IMG/VR virus record: IMGVR_UViG_3300001765_000193
Strand: one strand, 5' to 3'
Length of the DNA stretch: 34,986 nt
Source: a virus
The notes below the pieces were generated by a model that was given only the letters and a program-made list of their open reading frames with translations, was not told where the DNA came from and did no database searches. Positions 2,264 to 24,838 of the stretch are shown piece by piece; the first letter of the stretch is position 1; each line of letters begins with the position of its first letter. A program made the position numbers and the translations under genes.

Positions 2264-3285
2264 ACGTAATTCTGTATTAACGGAGTTGCAATTTCAAACT
2301 CTATTTCGTAATTAATTACTTTATCGTTTAACTTTGTTTTTTCAGTAAATGATGAGGTTTTAATTGTAGCATAAAAAGCCTCTGAACCATCAGCATTAAA
2401 TATCAATATATCTTCGCTTAACATCATTTCTTTTAATGCTTTAACCGAATTTTCTGTTATCCACCCTGTATTTAATTTTACACTTCGACTTCCATTTACA
2501 TTAAATGATTTTTTAAAACCAAGCAAATTATAATCACTTCCTTTGTATTCATTAGAAAGTAATGATTTTTTAAAAAATGTTATTTGAGAATTACCACCTA
2601 AAGAATTTGTATATGTTACAATGTATGGTAAAAATTTATTTTCACATTCTGCTACTACATTTTGAGAATAAATAACAGTCCAATCACCACCTACTAATAT
2701 TTGTAATTCAAAAGTATTTCCGTATCTAAAAAATTCATTAATTGTTGTTTTAGGAATGGTTAATAATTTGAAACCTGTATCAGTATAATCCACTATTTCA
2801 CTTCCTAAATCACTTGTGTAAACTGCTCTTAATGTAGTATAAGTATCAAAATTAAATGTTAAGTCTAAAGTTAATTTTGTGTAGTCAAAAGTATAATCAT
2901 TTTTATATAAAAATCTATTGTCTACATTGCCCTCTAAAAAAACATAAACATCAGCTCCAATACCAACAGTATAACCATAACCATAACTACTAACGTAACT
3001 ACTTTCATTTGAAAATATCCAAGAAGTTGTTAATTTATAATAAGTCTTTACTTTGCAATTTACTACTCTATTAGTTGGTGTTATTGCATCAGCAACAAAC
3101 GGACTTATATTATATTTACCAATAGTTTGCGTTGGACTGAAAATAGGTTTTTCAATTGTATGCGTTGGTGTAGTTGGTTCGGTTGCTCCTAAATTCCAAA
3201 TAAACAATTCTACTTTAGTTGCTATTTGCAAAGGGTTTGCATTAACCTCTATAATAAATGGTGTTCTACAAAAAAATATAGTCAT
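2260..3285 (-). CDS. Virion structural protein (tail-associated), 341 aa
   Basis: ORF coupled by 4-nt overlaps to both neighbours in the morphogenesis block. No recognisable motif. Confidence 0.35.
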   Translation of the reverse strand: MTIFFCRTPFIIEVNANPLQIATKVELFIWNLGATEPTTPTHTIEKPIFSPTQTIGKYNISPFVADAITPTNRVVNCKVKTYYKLTTSWIFSNESSYVSSYGYGYTVGIGADVYVFLEGNVDNRFLYKNDYTFDYTKLTLDLTFNFDTYTTLRAVYTSDLGSEIVDYTDTGFKLLTIPKTTINEFFRYGNTFELQILVGGDWTVIYSQNVVAECENKFLPYIVTYTNSLGGNSQITFFKKSLLSNEYKGSDYNLLGFKKSFNVNGSRSVKLNTGWITENSVKALKEMMLSEDILIFNADGSEAFYATIKTSSFTEKTKLNDKVINYEIEFEIATPLIQNYV

Positions 3286-9865: not shown

Positions 9866-9909
9866 AATGTAATTTTTAATTTATTGTTTTTTAGTTAGTT
9901 AACCCAAAA

Positions 9910-10104
9910 ATGACAAATGACAAAATATTTTTTACAGAGTTTAAATATAAATCATATATTTCATTTTATGTATAAATAATAAATAATGTAATACTATATA
10001 TAGTTTAAACCATATATTTTATGTCATTTTGTAATTTATAGGTTTATATATTTAAAAATCAAATAATTAACCAATGACAAAATCAATGACAAAGAATGAC
10101 AAAA
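9910..10104. repeat. Iteron cluster (ATGACAAA) flanking an extremely AT-rich core; putative replication origin
   Basis: Direct copies at 9910, 9917, 10074, 10086 and 10096, and an inverted copy at 10021-10030. Lies in the 250-bp ORF-free gap just after the primase-helicase gene. No TAnnTTTG box is present. Confidence 0.45.
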
Positions 10105-10116
10105 ATTACATTTTTA

Positions 10117-12279: not shown

Positions 12280-13921
12280 AATATTGTTTTAATTTTTCTT
12301 TAAGTTTTGATTTTAAATAAACTAAAGTTCTATTGCTTTTACTTGGCAAACCATTGAAAATTTTAATAAATGGTTCTCCTAAGATACGATTAATTTTTTT
12401 GTCAAATTGTCCGTTTAAAATGGATTTTTGATAGCTTCCAAAAGTAACTTTATTTTTTACAAATAAATCAAAAGTTTGATTAATTAATATTTTAAAAGCA
12501 AAATTAATATCCTCGTTTATTGATTGAACATACTTTATAATCTTTTCGCCACTTGGGTATATTTGTTTAACTTTAACTGCTGTTATTTTATTTGTAACTA
12601 TTTCAACTTCCTTTTCTTCAACTTCAATTATAGGTTCTTCATAATTACAACTTGGACAATTTTTTTCAGATTTCATTTTTAAAAAACCACAATTTTTGCA
12701 CTCATTAATATCGTCCAAACTTTCTTTTAATTGTTTTGGAGGTTTTAATCCGTTAAAAAATATCTTTTCCCAATTCCTTGTTTTGTCAGACCACATTCCT
12801 AAGCGGTCTGAATTTCCGCCACCATCTATAAAAATAAATTTATCTTTAAATATCTTTTTAGTAGATCTTGCACCTCGTCCAGCAATTTGTATAAATAATG
12901 ATAATGATGCGGTGGGTCGTGCCATAATAATAGCTTCTACATCGTCAACGTCAAACCCTTTAGTGAAACAAGAAACGTTTAATAGTATTGCATCACGTTC
13001 ATTTTCAAACCAACGTATCAAAGGTTTTCTTTCGTTTTTTTGGTTGTTAACAGAATCATACATTTTTACGTTGTAGCCTTTCTCTTTAAACATTTCATAA
13101 ATCAAAAGATTAACTTTAGTTGATGCTGTGAAAATCATTGTTTTTTTACCTAAACAAAGCTGTTCGTAATTATGTAAAATATCAATTTGCACTTCTTCTT
13201 TTTCGTATGTTTGAGCAATTGATTCGGCTGTAAATTCTCCACTACTATCGGTTTTTAAATTTTCGGTATTTACTGAAATTGAATATAATTCTTCATCAAC
13301 TAAAAAATCATTCTCGATTAAATAATCAATTCCAACTCCTACTACAATATCATCATATACATCGGACATCGTTTCTTCTTTAGTCCAAACTTTCAATTCA
13401 TAACCGCAGTGTTCAACTTTTTCAAGTTCTGGAACGAATGGTAACTCGGTATTACATTCATTGCATTTATAAAATTTAGTTCTTTTTAGTCTAACTGGGG
13501 TTGCTGTGAAACCTATTATTTTGCAATCAATAACGTAATCAAAAATTTTGTTAAAAATCCAAACGTGTGCCTCATCGATTATAAGATAATTAAAGCGTTC
13601 GATTAAATTAGTTTTTTTTTGCAACCTATTGAATAAAGTTTGAGCCATCGAAACCACTACTTTATTATTCGGGAATATTTTATTTTTGCTTTCAAAAGTA
13701 GCTACATCAACTCCTTGTTTTAAAAAAGTTTTATAAGTTTGAGTAACCAAGTCTTCACTATCCACTAAAATTAAAACATCGGTATTTAGTTGTTTTGTTA
13801 ATTCGGTAAAAATAACGGTTTTTCCTCCGCCTGTTGATAATTGAACGCATAATTTATTTACGCTTGGTAGCTTAAATAATATTTGTTCAAGTTGATTTTG
13901 TTGATATGTCCTTAATTGCAT
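12263..13921 (-). CDS. SF2 DEAD/DEAH-box DNA helicase with Zn-ribbon inserts, 552 aa
   Basis: Motif I LSTGGGKT, motif II IIDEAH, motif III FTATP and motif VI QIAGRGAR. CxxC pairs at CNECN...HCG and CKNCG...CPSCN. Confidence 0.85.
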   Translation of the reverse strand: MQLRTYQQNQLEQILFKLPSVNKLCVQLSTGGGKTVIFTELTKQLNTDVLILVDSEDLVTQTYKTFLKQGVDVATFESKNKIFPNNKVVVSMAQTLFNRLQKKTNLIERFNYLIIDEAHVWIFNKIFDYVIDCKIIGFTATPVRLKRTKFYKCNECNTELPFVPELEKVEHCGYELKVWTKEETMSDVYDDIVVGVGIDYLIENDFLVDEELYSISVNTENLKTDSSGEFTAESIAQTYEKEEVQIDILHNYEQLCLGKKTMIFTASTKVNLLIYEMFKEKGYNVKMYDSVNNQKNERKPLIRWFENERDAILLNVSCFTKGFDVDDVEAIIMARPTASLSLFIQIAGRGARSTKKIFKDKFIFIDGGGNSDRLGMWSDKTRNWEKIFFNGLKPPKQLKESLDDINECKNCGFLKMKSEKNCPSCNYEEPIIEVEEKEVEIVTNKITAVKVKQIYPSGEKIIKYVQSINEDINFAFKILINQTFDLFVKNKVTFGSYQKSILNGQFDKKINRILGEPFIKIFNGLPSKSNRTLVYLKSKLKEKLKQYYDKIQ

Positions 13922-13933
13922 AATTAAATAAAA

Positions 13934-14031
13934 GAGAAAACCCTCGAACTCGATGCACTACTATCGGTTGAGGGTTTCTCATTTACATTGCTATTGCAAC
14001 GTTATAATTTAAGTCGGTAGTGCTTCGACTT
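13934..14031 (-). ncRNA. Structured 5' leader A: short hairpin plus long bipartite hairpin with complementary loops
   Basis: Long hairpin 13934-13980 has about 18 bp with 3 bulges and the 8-nt loop gcactact. Short hairpin 14011-14031 has a 6-bp stem and a 9-nt loop. Loops pair 13955-13961 (gcactac) with 14017-14023 (gtagtgc). Confidence 0.55.
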
Positions 14032-14033
14032 CA

Positions 14034-14041
14034 CAAAACTA
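14034..14041 (-). promoter_or_regulatory. Bacteroidota-type -7 box TAGTTTTG
   Basis: Plus strand reads caaaacta, with a TTTG 18 nt upstream on the minus strand. The leader hairpin starts 3 nt downstream. Confidence 0.5.
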
Positions 14042-14042
14042 C

Positions 14043-14075
14043 AAAAAAAATCCGAACTACAAAGCAATTCGGATT
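14043..14075 (-). terminator. Rho-independent terminator after the recombination operon
   Basis: Stem AUCCGAA/UUCGGAU followed by U8 on the minus strand. Confidence 0.7.
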
Positions 14076-14083
14076 AATTTTTT

Positions 14084-14359
14084 TTAATTAATTTTCTCTA
14101 TTTTCCAGCCTTTTATTGAGTTAAAATATTTTGTTTCGCCCTGTGGATTAACCCACTCTCGACCTCCTACATTAATTGAAACTTTAACATCATCACCAAT
14201 ATTATAAAAATCTAATAAAGCGGTTTTATCTTGAGCAAATTCAATTATTATTGTTTGTATATATTGTTCATTAGTTGCTATAACTAATTCTCTCTTTTTG
14301 TATGATGCACTTACTTCTTGAACATCACTAATTACTTTAATTTTACCGATTAATTCCAT
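14084..14359 (-). CDS. DUF3127-family OB-fold (SSB-like) protein, 91 aa
   Basis: MELIGKIKVISDVQEV...ELVIATNEQY...FAQDK...GDDVKVSINVGGREW...NSIKGWKIEK matches the DUF3127 pattern common in Bacteroidota. Confidence 0.7.
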   Translation of the reverse strand: MELIGKIKVISDVQEVSASYKKRELVIATNEQYIQTIIIEFAQDKTALLDFYNIGDDVKVSINVGGREWVNPQGETKYFNSIKGWKIEKIN

Positions 14360-14967
14360 TGTTTATTTTTGTTTATTAAGTTAATATATTCTAATTTAAT
14401 TTCTATTACTTCTTTTAAACGTTCTTTAATTTTTTCAATCATTTCTTCATCACGTTCAACTATAATTTCGTGATAATATTCTGTGCCATTGTGAACTAAA
14501 TAATTAAAAAAATAGGCTTTATCTCTATTTGTGCATAACATTTGCATTTGCATTTGTGCATAATATTTAGTGTCGATTTCATTTGTAGCAACCAATTTAA
14601 AAAAAGTAGTTGACTTCGGACATTTAATTTCTAAAATTGCATTATCAGAAACCAATCCGTCAGGACTTGCTCCAGCGTGTTCTTGGAATGTAAAAAAACC
14701 ACATTTTTCAACTTCTAAAAATTCCAATCCTTTTAATTCTTTAAACTTTGCAAAAGCTAAGGGTTCTGTATCAATTCCGGTTTGCATATCATAAGAAATA
14801 TAACTCTCTTCAAATTCTCCGTATAATTGTTCAATAGCTTTTTCAATAGCATAAGTTTTGCCAGTTTCACCAAGTCCACGAACTCCAAGTATTTTAATAA
14901 TTTCACTTGCAGTAAATTTACCGCACCTATCTTTTAACCAACTTTCTGTTCGTTGTAATTGTTCCAT
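14350..14967 (-). CDS. YqaJ-like (lambda Exo-type) recombination exonuclease, 205 aa
   Basis: QRTESWLKDRCGKFTASEI N-terminal signature plus the SPDG...LEIKCP PD-(D/E)xK core. Confidence 0.8.
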   Translation of the reverse strand: MEQLQRTESWLKDRCGKFTASEIIKILGVRGLGETGKTYAIEKAIEQLYGEFEESYISYDMQTGIDTEPLAFAKFKELKGLEFLEVEKCGFFTFQEHAGASPDGLVSDNAILEIKCPKSTTFFKLVATNEIDTKYYAQMQMQMLCTNRDKAYFFNYLVHNGTEYYHEIIVERDEEMIEKIKERLKEVIEIKLEYINLINKNKQWN

Positions 14968-15464
14968 AGTTTTTCAATTTCAGGTGTTAATGTATATTTC
15001 ATTTTAATTTGTTCAATTGTTGCATTGGCTTTTTTTGCACTCTCAAAATTAGCTTCTGTAAAGTTTGGTTTTACTTTATTTAAAATTGGTTGTATTGGTT
15101 TGATACGAACTCCGTCTGTAATTGCTCCCATCATTTTTACATTTCTATCAACATACAATTCAATATTCATGCCCTTCCAATTTTCTATAATATGACATTC
15201 TTTACCTATTAATCCGTCTTTTTTTGCAAACCCAGCCAATATTTTATTATTAGTTGAATTTAGTTTTAATGGTTTAATAGGTTCTACAAAATAGCAAAAA
15301 ATGCCGTCTTGTTTAGTTCCTGAAACATCAACTCCTTGTTCATACTTTACTTCTTTAATAGTAAAAATTAAAGGCACTCCGTCTGTTTCCATAGCATCTA
15401 AATCAGCACTCGCAAGGTGTGTAGATTTTCGATACTTTCTCCAATCTGTTTTTTTATTTTCCAT
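14934..15464 (-). CDS. Hypothetical protein, 176 aa; first gene of the recombination operon
   Basis: Minus-strand ORF that overlaps the exonuclease gene. No motif I can name. An annealing or SSB role is a guess from position only. Confidence 0.3.
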   Translation of the reverse strand: MENKKTDWRKYRKSTHLASADLDAMETDGVPLIFTIKEVKYEQGVDVSGTKQDGIFCYFVEPIKPLKLNSTNNKILAGFAKKDGLIGKECHIIENWKGMNIELYVDRNVKMMGAITDGVRIKPIQPILNKVKPNFTEANFESAKKANATIEQIKMKYTLTPEIEKLWNNYNEQKVG

Positions 15465-15478
15465 ATTTTAAAAAATAA

Positions 15479-15560
15479 ACCTCTTTTAAGAAACTTAATC
15501 GGCTAGAATTAAGCGTTAAAAGAGGTGTTATAAATTTGTGAAAGTCCCTAGCCGAACTTT
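15479..15560 (-). ncRNA. Structured 5' leader B (same architecture as A)
   Basis: Long hairpin 15479-15526 has an 11-bp outer stem, a 6-bp inner stem and the 8-nt loop cggctaga. Short hairpin 15541-15560 has a 5-bp stem and a 10-nt loop. Loops pair 15500-15506 (cggctag) with 15548-15554 (ctagccg). Confidence 0.55.
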
Positions 15561-15568
15561 TTGATATG

Positions 15569-15576
15569 CAAATATA
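15569..15576 (-). promoter_or_regulatory. Bacteroidota-type -7 box TATATTTG
   Basis: Plus strand reads caaatata. The leader hairpin begins 7-8 nt downstream. Confidence 0.45.
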
Positions 15577-15587
15577 ACTAAATTAAA

Positions 15588-15752
15588 TTAATAAAATACA
15601 TTTTTTTTAATTATTTCTGTATTATATTTTTCAAAGCATTGTTTAGGTTTCAGTCTTGCCCAAAACATTTCAAATATAAATATTTGTTTTCCTGTTCTTT
15701 TGCAGTGGAATGTATATCCACTTACTTCTCTTTTAAATTCTCTGTATTTCAT
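15588..15752 (-). CDS. Hypothetical small protein, 54 aa (below cutoff)
   Basis: Hand translation MKYREFKREVSGYTFHCKRTGKQ...KKNVFY. The ATG lies 1 nt after the methyltransferase stop. Confidence 0.45.
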   Translation of the reverse strand: MKYREFKREVSGYTFHCKRTGKQIFIFEMFWARLKPKQCFEKYNTEIIKKNVFY

Positions 15753-15753
15753 T

Positions 15754-16404
15754 TTAAAAAAGTTTTGTTTGTGAAATATGATTTTTTACTCTTTGTATTC
15801 CTTTGTCGTAGTATTCCTTGTCAAGTTCACAGCCAACCAATTCAAATCCATAATCGTGGCACGCTATTGCAATACTCATCGACCCTAAATGCGTATCGAG
15901 TATTTTATCGCCTTGCTTGGCGTATTTATTTAGAATAAACTTATATAAGTCAATTGGTTTTTCAGTTGGATGTATTCTATCACTTCCGTTATTTGCATTA
16001 GCACCAACCCAAGATTTAAAAAATTTTCTTATAGAACCATTAAAAGAAGTCCACGCTAATTCTCCATCAGCATAAGAATTATCTCCAGTACCTTTATCCC
16101 AAAATAACCAACATTGAGAATTTTCTAATAAATTAGAAAAATAATTTCCACCCCAAATAATTTGATTTTTTGATATTCTTTGTAATTCTTTAAAATAATC
16201 TTTAGATGGAATTGATTTATCCCAATCATTTTCTCTAAAATCTATAGTTTTAATTTTGGAAGTTCCGTTTTTAAAGTTTTTACTTCCAGCACCAATCCCA
16301 TAAGGCGGGTCAACAATAGCCAACTCGAAATAATTATCAGGATAACGTGCCATTAGTTGCATATTGCATTCGTTTGTCAATTCTATTTTATCTGTTAGTT
16401 TCAT
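15754..16404 (-). CDS. N6/N4 DNA methyltransferase (N6_N4_Mtase family), 216 aa
   Basis: Motif IV IVDPPYGIG, then HPTEKPIDLY, then motif I-like DTHLGSMS. Paralog of 20698-21417. Confidence 0.8.
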   Translation of the reverse strand: MKLTDKIELTNECNMQLMARYPDNYFELAIVDPPYGIGAGSKNFKNGTSKIKTIDFRENDWDKSIPSKDYFKELQRISKNQIIWGGNYFSNLLENSQCWLFWDKGTGDNSYADGELAWTSFNGSIRKFFKSWVGANANNGSDRIHPTEKPIDLYKFILNKYAKQGDKILDTHLGSMSIAIACHDYGFELVGCELDKEYYDKGIQRVKNHISQTKLF

Positions 16405-16406
16405 AA

Positions 16407-17249
16407 TTAGAATAGTGTTTCTTGACTTTTATTAATTAATGTTTTAGCAAATCCAAATTCTTCTATATCTTTTAATTTTTGATACTCTTCATTTATCCAA
16501 TTTTCGGCATTTTTATGAAATGGTTTTTTAATTTCAAACCCAAAACATTTTCTTTTTAATTCTTGCCCGGCTATTAAAGTTGAGCCACTACCCGCGCAAG
16601 GGTCTATAATTACGTCTCCTTCATCCGTAAAAATTTCAATTAGTTTTTTCAAAACTTTTAATGGTTTTTGAGTAGGGTGCAATTTTTCAATATTTGCATC
16701 ATCACGTTCCCAATCCAAGCAATTAAAAATCATTTTACCTTTGTTATTAAATTTTGGCAAACGATCACGATAAAATATTAAAGCATATTCGCAGTTACCT
16801 ACTACTTTCATATTTGCTTTTAAAACTTGTGCCGAAAAGTTTTTACGAAATACTAAATTTATATAATTTTTCAATCCGTATCTTTTAGCTAATTCAATTA
16901 AATACATTTGTTGGTCGAATGCACAAAAAACAATCATACAAGGTGCATCGCCTTTTTGTCTTGGTTCTCCATCTTCTGACTTTTTTGGTTTAGTTTCTGC
17001 TTTTAGCATTGTGCTACAAAAGTGCATAAATTCTGCTGGTCTAAAATCTTCATCGGTATCAAAGAAACTTTTACCAGCTAATTCACTTTCTCCATTTGCA
17101 TTGTCTCCGTCTTTATACCACGCTGGGTTTGATGCGTATGCGTTGTTTCCTAAATTATAAGGAATATCCGCAATTATTAATTGTGCTTTCGGAATCGCAT
17201 ATGTTTTGAAATTCTGAAAATGGTTATTAAATATTTGTGCTTTTTTCAT
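16407..17249 (-). CDS. N6/N4 DNA methyltransferase (beta-class order), 280 aa
   Basis: Motif IV variant IADIPYNLG, HPTQKPLKVLKKLIE, motif I DPCAGSGST. Confidence 0.8.
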   Translation of the reverse strand: MKKAQIFNNHFQNFKTYAIPKAQLIIADIPYNLGNNAYASNPAWYKDGDNANGESELAGKSFFDTDEDFRPAEFMHFCSTMLKAETKPKKSEDGEPRQKGDAPCMIVFCAFDQQMYLIELAKRYGLKNYINLVFRKNFSAQVLKANMKVVGNCEYALIFYRDRLPKFNNKGKMIFNCLDWERDDANIEKLHPTQKPLKVLKKLIEIFTDEGDVIIDPCAGSGSTLIAGQELKRKCFGFEIKKPFHKNAENWINEEYQKLKDIEEFGFAKTLINKSQETLF

Positions 17250-17270
17250 AAATATTTTTAAAATTTAAAA

Positions 17271-17344
17271 CCCGATTAAAGCAAAGTAAGGCATTTGCTA
17301 AAATCGGGGATTATTAATGTTTTATTAGACCGCCTTACTTGTCT
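17271..17344 (-). ncRNA. Structured 5' leader C (same architecture as A and B)
   Basis: Long hairpin 17271-17308 has a 7-bp outer stem, a 6-bp inner stem and the 8-nt loop gtaaggca. Short hairpin 17327-17344 has a 4-bp stem and a 10-nt loop. Loops pair 17286-17292 (gtaaggc) with 17332-17338 (gccttac). Confidence 0.55.
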
Positions 17345-17348
17345 GTTG

Positions 17349-17375
17349 CAAAGATATAAAAATTATTTTAATTAA
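17349..17375 (-). promoter_or_regulatory. -7 box TATCTTTG plus one upstream TTAATTAAAATAAtT unit
   Basis: Plus strand reads caaagata at 17349-17356. A 15-nt unit at 17361-17375, 4 nt from the box, matches 14/15 nt of the tandem units at 19981-20014 and 24377-24410. Confidence 0.5.
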
Positions 17376-17387
17376 AACAATTTTTTT

Positions 17388-17621
17388 TTAAAATATTATT
17401 TTAACTAAAAACAAACCTACAATTGCACCGCAACCAGCTCCGAGAGCATAGGTTAATTTTTGATTAGTAGTTGAAACGCTGATTTTTGATACATTAAACG
17501 CCCACAGCAACGAAATTGTAAACGATGCTATAAATATACCAATCCAATTTAATTGAGTGATAAAATACGTGTTTATAGCAACCATTCCGATTTGTATAAA
17601 CGATGTTAGAAATGTTTTCAT
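17388..17621 (-). CDS. Small integral membrane protein (3 predicted TM), 77 aa
   Basis: Almost entirely hydrophobic: IQIGMVAINTYFI, IGIFIASFTISLLWAF, ALGAGCGAIVGLFLVKIIF. Confidence 0.55.
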   Translation of the reverse strand: MKTFLTSFIQIGMVAINTYFITQLNWIGIFIASFTISLLWAFNVSKISVSTTNQKLTYALGAGCGAIVGLFLVKIIF

Positions 17622-19968: not shown

Positions 19969-20014
19969 CAAATCTATAAAACTTATTTTAATTAAAAAAA
20001 CTTATTTTAATTAA
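19969..20014 (-). promoter_or_regulatory. Early promoter: -7 box TAGATTTG preceded by two tandem TTAATTAAAATAAGT units
   Basis: Plus strand reads caaatcta at 19969-19976. Units lie at 19981-19995 and 20000-20014. The 34-nt block is identical to 24377-24410 with the same 4-nt offset to the box. Confidence 0.55.
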
Positions 20015-20697: not shown

Positions 20698-21417
20698 CTA
20701 AAACAACCGCAGTTGTGATTTAAAGTCATTAAAACGTTTTTCTTGTTTGTCATAATATTCTTTGTCTATTTCAAACCCTACAAAGTTGAACCCGCCTTTA
20801 TACGCTGCAATCCTACTGCTTCCACTTCCTAAATGTGTATCTAAAATCAAATCATTTGGCTTTGCATAGTTTGATAAAAGCCAGTCGTATAGTTTGGTTG
20901 GCTTTTGCGTTGGGTGTATTTTTATATCTCCGCAGTTAATATAAGCATCGGCTCTGCTATATCCAAATACTTTAAAAGTATTGATGCTTGTTTTTGCAAA
21001 TTCACCTTCCTTAAAATTTCCGCTTCCTTTTTTATACCAAACTATTACTCCTTCTAAATGTAAATTGTGAAAATAATTTCCACCCCATACAATTTGATTT
21101 TTAGATACTCTTTTTAGTTCGGAAAAATATTCATCTGTTGGCACTTCATTATCCCAATTTGTTTGATGATACTTTTTATAAGTTCCAGCATTTTTAGTAA
21201 ATCCTTTTTTGCCCCCTAAATCGTTTTGAGTTAAATCGGCATTTATCCCATAAGGCGGGTCAACTATTGCCAAATCAAAATGATTATCGTTAAATCGTTT
21301 TAATGCCTTTACACAATCTTCCAAATAAACCTCCGAAGTAGGCACTGCTGGTAACAGCGGTTTTGTGCTATTGCCTGTTTCTGGCTTAACTGAAAGTTCG
21401 TTTATATCTTCAAACAT
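20698..21417 (-). CDS. N6/N4 DNA methyltransferase, 239 aa (start moved to MFEDINEL)
   Basis: IVDPPYGIN, NQIVWGGNYF, HPTQKPTKLYDWLL, DTHLGSGSS. The start choice is supported by a repeated leader also found in front of the ASCH-like gene. Confidence 0.8.
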   Translation of the reverse strand: MFEDINELSVKPETGNSTKPLLPAVPTSEVYLEDCVKALKRFNDNHFDLAIVDPPYGINADLTQNDLGGKKGFTKNAGTYKKYHQTNWDNEVPTDEYFSELKRVSKNQIVWGGNYFHNLHLEGVIVWYKKGSGNFKEGEFAKTSINTFKVFGYSRADAYINCGDIKIHPTQKPTKLYDWLLSNYAKPNDLILDTHLGSGSSRIAAYKGGFNFVGFEIDKEYYDKQEKRFNDFKSQLRLF

Positions 21418-21488
21418 CTGTCTTAAATTTAAAGTTAGTGTGTGTTTTATCGGCAACAGCACAAAGCCACAAAACGTTAGCATCAAGA

Positions 21489-24364: not shown

Positions 24365-24410
24365 CAAAAATAATAAACTTATTTTAATTAAAAAAACTTA
24401 TTTTAATTAA
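24365..24410 (-). promoter_or_regulatory. Early promoter: -7 box TATTTTTG preceded by two tandem TTAATTAAAATAAGT units
   Basis: Plus strand reads caaaaata at 24365-24372. Units lie at 24377-24391 and 24396-24410 and are identical to 19981-20014. Confidence 0.55.
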
Positions 24411-24440: not shown

Positions 24441-24466
24441 AAACCTATCAAATTAATGATAGGTTT
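24441..24466 (-). terminator. Rho-independent terminator of the tmRNA-like unit
   Basis: 10-bp stem AAACCUAUCA/UGAUAGGUUU, 6-nt loop, then UUUAUUU. Confidence 0.7.
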
Positions 24467-24780
24467 AAATAACTTTACAGAATTTACACTGCATCTCGAC
24501 TTTAGAAGGGTCGTATTTTAAACTTAAACTAAAAGTTATAAGATTTCGTTCTTTTAAACGGAATTACACAGCCATTCTTAATGTTGCATTATTCAAATTA
24601 ATAACGTTGTCGGTTATTTTTTTTTAGCTCTCGATATTACTTACTTATCTATTGTCAAAGCCAAGCACCCCCAAAATATTCCGAATGTTCGGACACTTAT
24701 CAAACATAAACGTTTTGCGTTGTGGAGGTGGTGGGAGTCGAACCCACGTCCAAATAGATTTCATTAATACGTCAACGAAC
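24441..24780 (-). ncRNA. ssrA: Circularly permuted (two-piece) tmRNA-like RNA: acceptor piece then coding piece
   Basis: 24759->24723 reads AUCUAUU-UGGAC-GUGGG-UUCGACU-CCCAC-CACCUCC-A. 24672->24647 reads GGGGGUG-CUUGGCUUUGAC-AAUAGAU. The acceptor stem pairs fully with G3:U70, the P2 strands are exact complements, and there is no ORF in the unit. Confidence 0.6.
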
Positions 24781-24785
24781 TTTTA

Positions 24786-24801
24786 CAAAGATACAAAAAT
24801 A
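24786..24801 (-). promoter_or_regulatory. Two adjacent -7 boxes TATTTTTG-TATCTTTG driving the tmRNA-like unit
   Basis: Plus strand reads caaagata at 24786-24793 and caaaaata at 24794-24801, just downstream of the lysis-operon terminator. Confidence 0.45.
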
Positions 24802-24810
24802 TTTTTTAAA

Positions 24811-24838
24811 TAAAAAACCACCCTTTTGAGAGTGGTTT
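24811..24838 (-). terminator. Rho-independent terminator after the lysis cassette
   Basis: Stem AAACCAC/GUGGUUU (24815-24838) followed by a U run on the minus strand. Confidence 0.55.

Follow-up and report, generated by a model that had tools for sequence, protein, structure and literature searches.

A putative kissing-loop RNA leader family at the promoters of Flavobacterium phage operons

A leader lying between the promoter and the first start codon of a tandem methyltransferase operon in a viral genome fragment (IMG/VR record IMGVR_UViG_3300001765_000193, of which the whole 34,986-nt stretch analysed is referred to here as the window) belongs, as judged by sequence comparison, to a real and conserved kissing-loop RNA family of Flavobacterium phages that is apparently undescribed. 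Every gene of the window is encoded on the minus strand, as is this leader (leader C), and all features below are given in that orientation. The −7 box TATCTTTG of a Bacteroidetes-type promoter (17349–17356) fits the TAHHTTTG consensus, with its G at −5, and is separated by 4 nt (caac) from the first hairpin of leader C. Because F. johnsoniae promoters have this G at −5 (PMC6847099), +1 is placed at 17344, the first base of this hairpin, and the leader C transcript very probably starts with it, as the original prediction had proposed.

The 5′-terminal hairpin, hp1 (17327–17344), has an agac/gtct stem and a 10-nt loop, aagtaaggcg (AAGUAAGGCG), and reads agac-AAGTAAGGCG-gtct from 17344 to 17327. 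An A-rich single-stranded spacer, aauaaaacauuaauaauc (17309–17326; aataaaacattaataatc as read on the minus strand between the two hairpins), leads to a two-tier hairpin (17271–17308), in which a 7-bp outer stem (cccgatt/aatcggg, 17308–17302 with 17277–17271), a 2 × 2 internal loop and a 6-bp inner stem (agcaaa/tttgct, 17299–17294 with 17285–17280) carry an 8-nt apical loop (UGCCUUAC; tgccttac, 17293–17286); read through, it is cccgatt-tt-agcaaa-TGCCTTAC-tttgct-tt-aatcggg from 17308 to 17271. The two loop sites, ~45 nt apart on the same strand, are complementary over 7 contiguous Watson–Crick nucleotides, GUAAGGC in hp1 (17338–17332) and GCCUUAC in the apical loop (17292–17286), extendable to 9 nt as AAGUAAGGC (17340–17332) and GCCUUACUU (17292–17284). 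All of the stems, loops and positions originally predicted are present on the minus strand; missing from that description was the U-rich tract uuuuaaauuuu (17260–17270), which lies directly 3′ of the outer stem, has 5 T in its first 8 nt and gives the long hairpin its terminator-like character. The ATG at 17249 lies 21 nt past the outer stem, and the leader RNA is roughly 95 nt long.

The minimum free energy structure of leader C predicted by RNAfold consists of both hairpins (−20.7 kcal/mol, z = −2.6, with 2 of 200 shuffled sequences folding as well), and the predicted energies are −1.7 kcal/mol for hp1 alone, −16.5 kcal/mol for the two-tier hairpin, −6.9 kcal/mol for its outer stem alone and −13.1 kcal/mol for the loop–loop duplex. 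Dinucleotide shuffling reproduced the full architecture in 20 of 4000 sequences for leader C, compared with 23/4000 for leader B and 6/4000 for leader A, the two sister leaders described below. One copy is only moderately improbable, because the architecture arises in ~0.5% of leader C shuffles; chance is excluded by far because there are three copies in the window and because of the comparative evidence.

The ATG at 17249 opens the 280-aa product of the first operon gene (16407–17249), an N6_N4 DNA methyltransferase with a PF01555 (N6_N4_Mtase) domain (E = 6e-23), behind which lies a second methyltransferase of 216 aa (15754–16404), so the operon is tandem, as originally described. A 54-aa ORF (15588–15752) follows and runs into leader B (15479–15576), which has the same architecture with loops CGGCUAGG/UCUAGCCG (also written CGGCTAGG/TCTAGCCG) and precedes genes for a 176-aa protein, a YqaJ exonuclease and a DUF3127 protein. 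Leader A (13937–14041), again of the same architecture with loops AAGCACUAC/AGUAGUGC (also written AAGCACTAC/AGTAGTGC), has helicase and primase genes downstream. The loop sequences of the three leaders are unrelated to one another. A relaxed scan of the whole window produced no further convincing leader copy beyond A, B and C. A loose two-hairpin definition gave as many matches in shuffled sequence (~22) as in the AT-rich window, and was replaced by a stricter architecture and by a test blind to loop complementarity. A canonical intrinsic terminator (14049–14075, AATCCGAA...TTCGGATT followed by T8) stands immediately upstream of leader A, its U-tract overlapping the leader A −7 box; leaders B and C have no separate upstream terminator. 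Downstream of the primase gene, a 250-nt AT-rich intergenic gap holds iteron-like repeats (9866–10116, minus strand), with three TTGTCAT(T) copies at ~10101–10067, an inverted AATGACA at ~10027–10019 and two more direct copies at ~9922–9906, and this region is a candidate replication origin.

The promoter of leader C shares an upstream motif with other promoters of the window. This motif, TTAATTAAAATAA (17363–17375), ends 6 nt ahead of the leader C −7 box and occurs in five exact copies in the window (17363–17375, 19983–20014 and 24379–24410, minus strand), each ending 6 nt before a TAnnTTTG box at 17356, 19976 or 24372, with one copy at the leader C promoter and two each at the leaderless promoters 19976 and 24372. 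With up to one mismatch allowed there are 14 matches in the window against 3.0 expected, and the motif may mark a shared promoter class or an operator. A third DNA methyltransferase gene (262 aa, phrog_67; 20698–21486, minus strand), additional to the tandem pair, lies in the early region. The window also encodes a permuted (two-piece) tmRNA (24473–24813, minus strand), for which the Rfam tmRNA_permuted match covers 24564–24780 (61.6 bits), the tRNA-like part 24469–24538 and the tag peptide given by ARAGORN is DNVINLNNATLRMAV*; it is served by a TAnnTTTG box of its own (24793) and by a terminator at 24466–24441.

In a DNA-level comparison with GenBank phages, the methyltransferase and other genes matched at ~70% identity and no record had intergenic DNA in common with the window; relatives were therefore gathered as viral contigs via the helicase, methyltransferase and 176-aa proteins. 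Members of the family were defined by a TAnnTTTG −7 box 0–13 nt upstream of the first hairpin; a 5′ hairpin with a 4–8-bp stem and an 8–12-nt loop; a second hairpin with an outer stem of at least 6 bp, an internal loop, an inner stem of 3–7 bp and an apical loop of 8–13 nt; at least 7 contiguous Watson–Crick bases between the two apical loops; and a U-rich tract after the outer stem, with a start codon roughly 14–24 nt downstream. Leader C has every one of these features, from the −7 box, hp1 and the two-tier hairpin to the loop complement and the spacing of U-tract and ATG. A scanner for the full architecture identified 36 distinct leaders on the related viral contigs, and 57 with no tail criterion, which bears out the original proposal that leaders A, B and C form one family. 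The A-rich spacer is found in all members, at 10–32 nt, and the catalogued leaders carry >25 different loop 'addresses' in total. Upstream of helicase orthologues (85–93% amino-acid identity) the leader is present with loop pairs that are entirely different yet always complementary (GCACTAC, CGTCCAC, GTGAGAAG and GTGAGACG). The operons behind the leaders encode methyltransferases, recombination proteins, helicase–primase and endonuclease–SSB.

Cultured virulent Flavobacterium phages also carry leaders, with two copies in sniff9-1, three in snusmum6-1 and two in mumin9-1. Between GUGAGACG/CGUCUCAC of sniff9-1 and GUGGAACG/CGUUCCAC of mumin9-1 there are two adjacent compensatory swaps in a leader that is otherwise nearly identical. 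No such leaders were present in the replication regions of Nonlabens phage P12024L and Cellulophaga phage phi46:1. When viral contigs were scanned for the pattern of the leader C loop pair, ~20 true copies emerged; 185,579 bacterial and archaeal genomes gave 90 matches, all of which are attributed to chance because none has flanking stems, leaving no prophage copies. Two leaders of a single contig (L004, 1545–1624 and 4316–4382) have the same 10-nt loop address, AAGTAGTGAG, so a genome does not invariably give each leader an address of its own. In two other contigs (L003, 3195–3275, and L005, 1374–1455) AAGTAAGGC, the same 9-mer as in the leader C hp1 loop, lies in the 3′ arm of the outer stem, which could be a coincidence or a trace of how new addresses originate.

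Comparative evidence argues that the loop–loop pairing is real and evolutionarily maintained. To avoid circularity, promoter-proximal hairpin pairs were picked without regard to loop complementarity and then scored for a loop–loop complement of at least 6 nt, which was present in 44 of 144 candidates on the gene strand (32 of 41 where the outer stem was at least 10 bp), in 0 of 149 on the antisense strand and in 1.1% of non-cognate loop pairs. In a sequence-based alignment of seven homologous leaders (A3), the 8-bp kissing helix was 100% paired, with four two-sided and no one-sided changes, and none of the shuffled or slid controls of this alignment approached that result. Isolated mismatches within helices were G·U in 24 cases, A·C in 1 and other combinations in 5. 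Together with the G·U:A·C ratio of 24:1 and the strand asymmetry, the constant location of the leaders between promoter and ATG points to an RNA structure of the sense strand rather than a DNA site. The loop–loop pairing first proposed for leader C is supported, and the kissing helix covaries within the family.

The stems of the leaders closest to leader C have also diverged in a compensatory manner. These relatives were found by loop-pair search, and their loops are therefore identical by design; their hp1 stems are agac/gtct, cgac/gtcg, tgac/gtca and cgtg/cacg, in which three of the four pairs change on both sides, and their outer stems include CCCGATT, CCCGAA, CCTCGCC, CCCTGCC, CCGTTG, CGCTCCC and TGCGATCA, with all 10 counted pairs of the two-tier hairpin changing on both sides. 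MAFFT alignments of leaders C and B did not align the second hairpin in a structurally consistent manner, and the A3 subgroup and a block-extracted alignment (A4) were used instead. In A4, two-sided changes affect 13 of the 14 stem pairs and every cell is paired (100%), a percentage that is inflated because the blocks were chosen by structure.

The position of leader C ahead of a methyltransferase had led to the suggestion that gating by it bears on when the genome is protected, and this part of the original prediction was not supported by comparison with the relatives. In other viral contigs, at least 8 different genes lie behind the identical loop pair (AAGTAAGGCG/TGCCTTAC), a methyltransferase orthologue in contig L089 follows a leader with a different loop pair, and a specific link to the methyltransferase gene was rejected after most of 80 fetched methyltransferase loci proved to have no upstream leader. 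In one contig (L022, IMGVR_UViG_3300025896_002243) the methyltransferase gene, starting at 3001, abuts its upstream neighbour with no promoter or leader in between, and this neighbour is a homologue of the 77-aa ORF that lies upstream of leader C in the window (17388–17621). A promoter-plus-leader cassette of ~140 bp is therefore present or absent between otherwise collinear genes. The snusmum6-1 homologue of the 77-aa ORF (gp32) is again located immediately upstream of a leader. By these distributions the cassette is a generic, modular promoter-plus-leader unit that is not methyltransferase-specific; gating of the operon by leader C is plausible, and nothing specific about methyltransferase biology is learned from its presence.

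The region between the outer stem and the start codon resembles that of an intrinsic terminator. Leader C carries the corresponding sequence signature, a GC-containing stem followed by a 7–9-nt U-tract, and is missed by a simple terminator scan because of its internal loop. Across the 57 leaders selected with no tail criterion, T accounts for 0.61–0.79 of positions +1 to +9 after the outer stem, compared with a background of 0.30, and then falls as A rises; the first 8 nt contain 5 or more T in 50 of the 57, the other 7 having weak U-tracts (<5). The outer stem ends 14–20 nt ahead of the ATG in these leaders and the 5′ flank is A-rich; in these flanks and in their GC-rich outer stems the leaders are similar to canonical terminators from the same genomes. 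We infer that the two-tier hairpin and U-tract constitute an intrinsic terminator. In relatives, a further, canonical terminator sits directly ahead of the promoter in approximately 40% of leaders, and the leader terminator is therefore not needed there to end the previous operon. Median predicted energies for the family are −2.5 kcal/mol for hp1, −2.2 for the inner hairpin, −10.9 for the outer stem alone, −11.4 for the loop–loop duplex and −17.6 for the whole long hairpin. By these predictions the loop–loop duplex is the strongest local interaction, hp1 and the inner hairpin being marginal, and kissing is not thermodynamically required since the long hairpin is predicted to be stable alone.

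The hypothesis that best fits these features is that the leader is a promoter-proximal transcription attenuator in which the kissing helix clamps a weak upper hairpin, a proposal on which our confidence is evenly divided. Leader C is one copy of a modular cassette placed ahead of DNA-metabolism operons in a group of Flavobacterium phages. Host RNA polymerase would start at the Bacteroidetes-type promoter and the RNA would open with the weak hp1, to be followed by the A-rich spacer and by the two-tier hairpin, which with its ~9-nt U-tract would act as an intrinsic terminator ending ~20 nt short of the start codon. Between the apical loop of this hairpin and the hp1 loop runs the kissing helix of 7–9 Watson–Crick base pairs, tying the 5′ end and the top of the terminator into one compact fold, and by clamping the marginal upper hairpin this helix would set the speed and completeness of terminator folding. 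Expression of the operon would depend on read-through that may be constitutively partial or relieved by a factor acting on the kissing complex, which would recognise or disrupt it by shape and not by sequence. In our preferred reading, kissing would promote termination rather than oppose it. If attenuation is true, the family would explain how early and replication operons are partitioned in virulent Flavobacterium phages without known antiterminators, and it would offer naturally orthogonal kissing-loop terminator parts for Bacteroidetes, a phylum lacking Shine–Dalgarno-based control.

Confidence in attenuation goes no higher because of three results. No alternative antiterminator pairing was found in the leaders; no nucleotide outside the promoter is conserved among the 36 catalogued leaders, in which loops, stems and internal loops all vary, so that nothing able to bind a ligand or protein, the core of a riboswitch, is common to them; and no window protein is both common to all leader-bearing phages and absent from leaderless ones in a comparison of partly fetched genomes. 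By-eye checks for pairing of the spacer with the start-codon region, for pairing of the promoter RNA with the spacer and for a YUNR U-turn in the loops were inconsistent, and these candidates were set aside. An unlikely extension of the attenuator is a shape-coded regulon, in which a sequence-independent factor for the bent kissing complex, or a physical signal (temperature, Mg2+ and polymerase speed being candidates), would switch all leader terminators of a genome together. The hypervariable addresses would then prevent mis-pairing among the leaders of one genome and those of co-infecting relatives. Sequence-independent recognition has a precedent in Rop/Rom, which recognises ColE1 kissing complexes irrespective of their sequence. 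If true, this would amount to a new RNA switch class lacking an aptamer and based on kissing in cis between the 5′ end and the terminator tip.

Several other explanations of the leaders were considered. A role as mRNA stabiliser or insulator, which we regard as somewhat unlikely, fits the observations about as well as attenuation in one respect, because the terminator follows its own promoter with no identified relief mechanism. Here hp1, locked to the downstream hairpin, would guard against 5′-end-dependent decay and keep the A-rich initiation region unstructured, and termination would be incidental or would only halt read-through from the upstream operon. 5′-terminal hairpins such as that of the ompA 5′ UTR are known mRNA stabilisers, and hp1 begins at +1, is too weak to persist alone (median −2.5 kcal/mol) and would be stabilised by a kissing helix of −11 kcal/mol; the hairpin end fixed 14–20 nt from the ATG corresponds to the edge of the ribosome footprint, and at leaders B and C, with no separate upstream terminator, the leader hairpins would also end the preceding operon. 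However, a U-tract of 61–79% over just ~9 nt beside a GC-rich stem is superfluous for stabilisation, for which a plain GC-rich 5′ hairpin would serve more cheaply, and a canonical terminator is already in place immediately upstream of ~40% of leaders. The model stays alive because kissing is predicted to be dispensable for the stability of the long hairpin, a point that also lends something, though less, to the two improbable alternatives that follow. One is a put-like RNA, a two-hairpin kissing fold that would bind RNA polymerase in cis and make it resist pausing and termination in the manner of HK022 put RNA, so that transcripts would read through both their own terminators and those further downstream; two stem-loops directly after the promoters of delayed operons, an architecture conserved where sequence is not and a factor-independent design all agree with this, but the operons have no internal terminators that would need processive antitermination, the terminator signature sits in the leader itself and there is no similarity to an Rfam family.

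The other improbable alternative is that the leaders are stand-alone sRNA genes, with transcription stopping at the U-tract, a self-kissing RNA of 75–95 nt as the product (a shape decoy or trans-acting regulator) and the downstream genes expressed by other means. An sRNA gene would likewise have a promoter and a terminator ~90 nt apart, the compact fold is expected to be highly stable, and short PR′–tR′ transcripts of lambdoid phages are reported to be able to act as regulatory RNAs (PMC7547250). Against this, the leader always lies 14–20 nt before a start codon, the operon has no other promoter and no seed is free because each loop is occupied by the other. Nor does the window contain trans targets of the leader loops beyond chance: leader C is the only place in it where the 9-mer and the reverse complement are found, and the loop 7-mers of A, B and C each recur once at most (7340, 1710), within the ~2.1 expected per strand. 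A DNA-level element (protein site, cruciform or recombination site) or chance complementarity in AT-rich DNA is scarcely credible. A single copy does arise in ~0.5% of shuffles and chance matches to the loose definition are common in AT-rich sequence, but the strand asymmetry (44/144 against 0/149), the G·U excess over A·C and the compensatory changes in all helices effectively refute this view, to which the fixed position between promoter and ATG and the >25 different loop sequences, which leave no common protein site, are also contrary.

Searches of known families and of the literature returned no counterpart of the leader. Rfam 15 at gathering score gave no match in the window except the tmRNA and a tRNA elsewhere, and at E up to 10 the region 13800–17500 gave only a weak opposite-strand Thr_leader match and two unrelated ones, nothing relevant; the Thr_leader match, over the leader A region (13985–14085), reached 21 bits against a cutoff of 55 bits (E = 1). 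Literature searches found no published description of this kissing-loop leader design, and the paper on sniff9-1, snusmum6-1 and mumin9-1 mentions neither promoters nor terminators. On analogy of mechanism, the closest experimentally dissected analogue is the corrinoid riboswitch, in which kissing between L5 and L13 strengthens a weak hairpin of the expression platform and, depending on architecture, favours or blocks formation of a terminator (PMC10327014). As in the leaders, an upstream loop kisses the loop of a marginal hairpin in cis, and the stability of that hairpin decides the terminator (PMC10327014). A large ligand-binding aptamer is conserved in the riboswitch, whose kissing loop has 3–5 bp and a near-constant sequence, whereas the leaders have no aptamer, no conserved nucleotides and a hypervariable kissing helix of 7–10 bp, and what is kissed in them is the upper part of the putative terminator itself.

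In pT181 RNAI/repC, pIP501 RNAIII and RnaG/icsA, loop–loop kissing with a hairpin of the nascent leader reportedly controls an intrinsic terminator (PMC3753616, PMC5394118). These antisense attenuators are similar to the leaders in having a terminator just upstream of the gene and loops that serve as changeable specificity codes (PMC3753616, PMC5394118); they differ in that the partner is a separate RNA from the opposite strand and their leader switches between pre-emptor and terminator folds. In the leaders both partners lie on one transcript and no alternative fold was found, the partner in leader C being part of the leader and not a separate antisense transcript. The lambda PR′–tR′/Q, N–nut/boxB and HK022 put systems likewise place a terminator or hairpin directly downstream of the phage promoter of a temporally delayed operon. 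Within a genome boxB and qut are conserved in sequence, unlike leaders A, B and C, whose hp1 loops are unrelated (AAGCACUAC, CGGCUAGG and AAGUAAGGCG, respectively), and no Q or N homologue was identified. HK022 put is not known to carry a terminator signature, and the leaders resemble it only in having two promoter-proximal stem-loops, their operons being without internal terminators.

In the immI operon of phages P1 and P7, the c4 RNA from the 5′ end of the transcript pairs with short downstream sites, and the pairing sequences vary in a compensatory manner between phages; c4 is cut out of the transcript by RNase P and targets a ribosome-binding site in trans, with polarity that depends on Rho. 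The leaders share with it a 5′-end element that pairs further down the same transcript and diverges compensatorily, but c4 is not known to kiss the loop of a terminator. T4-type promoter/stem-loop cassettes (PeSL) are modular and shuffled between genes in phage genomes, and these and the ompA 5′ UTR are similar to the leaders in their 5′ hairpin and second hairpin before the initiation region and in their modular cassettes; neither is known to have a covarying loop–loop helix. Structured leaders that carry terminators are a classic means of timing gene expression, and, to our knowledge, those described so far rely for sensing on an aptamer of conserved sequence, a leader peptide, a site for a protein or an antisense RNA made separately. 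The leader family shows none of these features and, as judged by comparison of its members, keeps only a geometry, a 5′-terminal hairpin that kisses the tip of a putative terminator, with pairing sequences that diverge while staying complementary, and there is a modest chance that it represents a genuinely new, aptamer-free class of switch.
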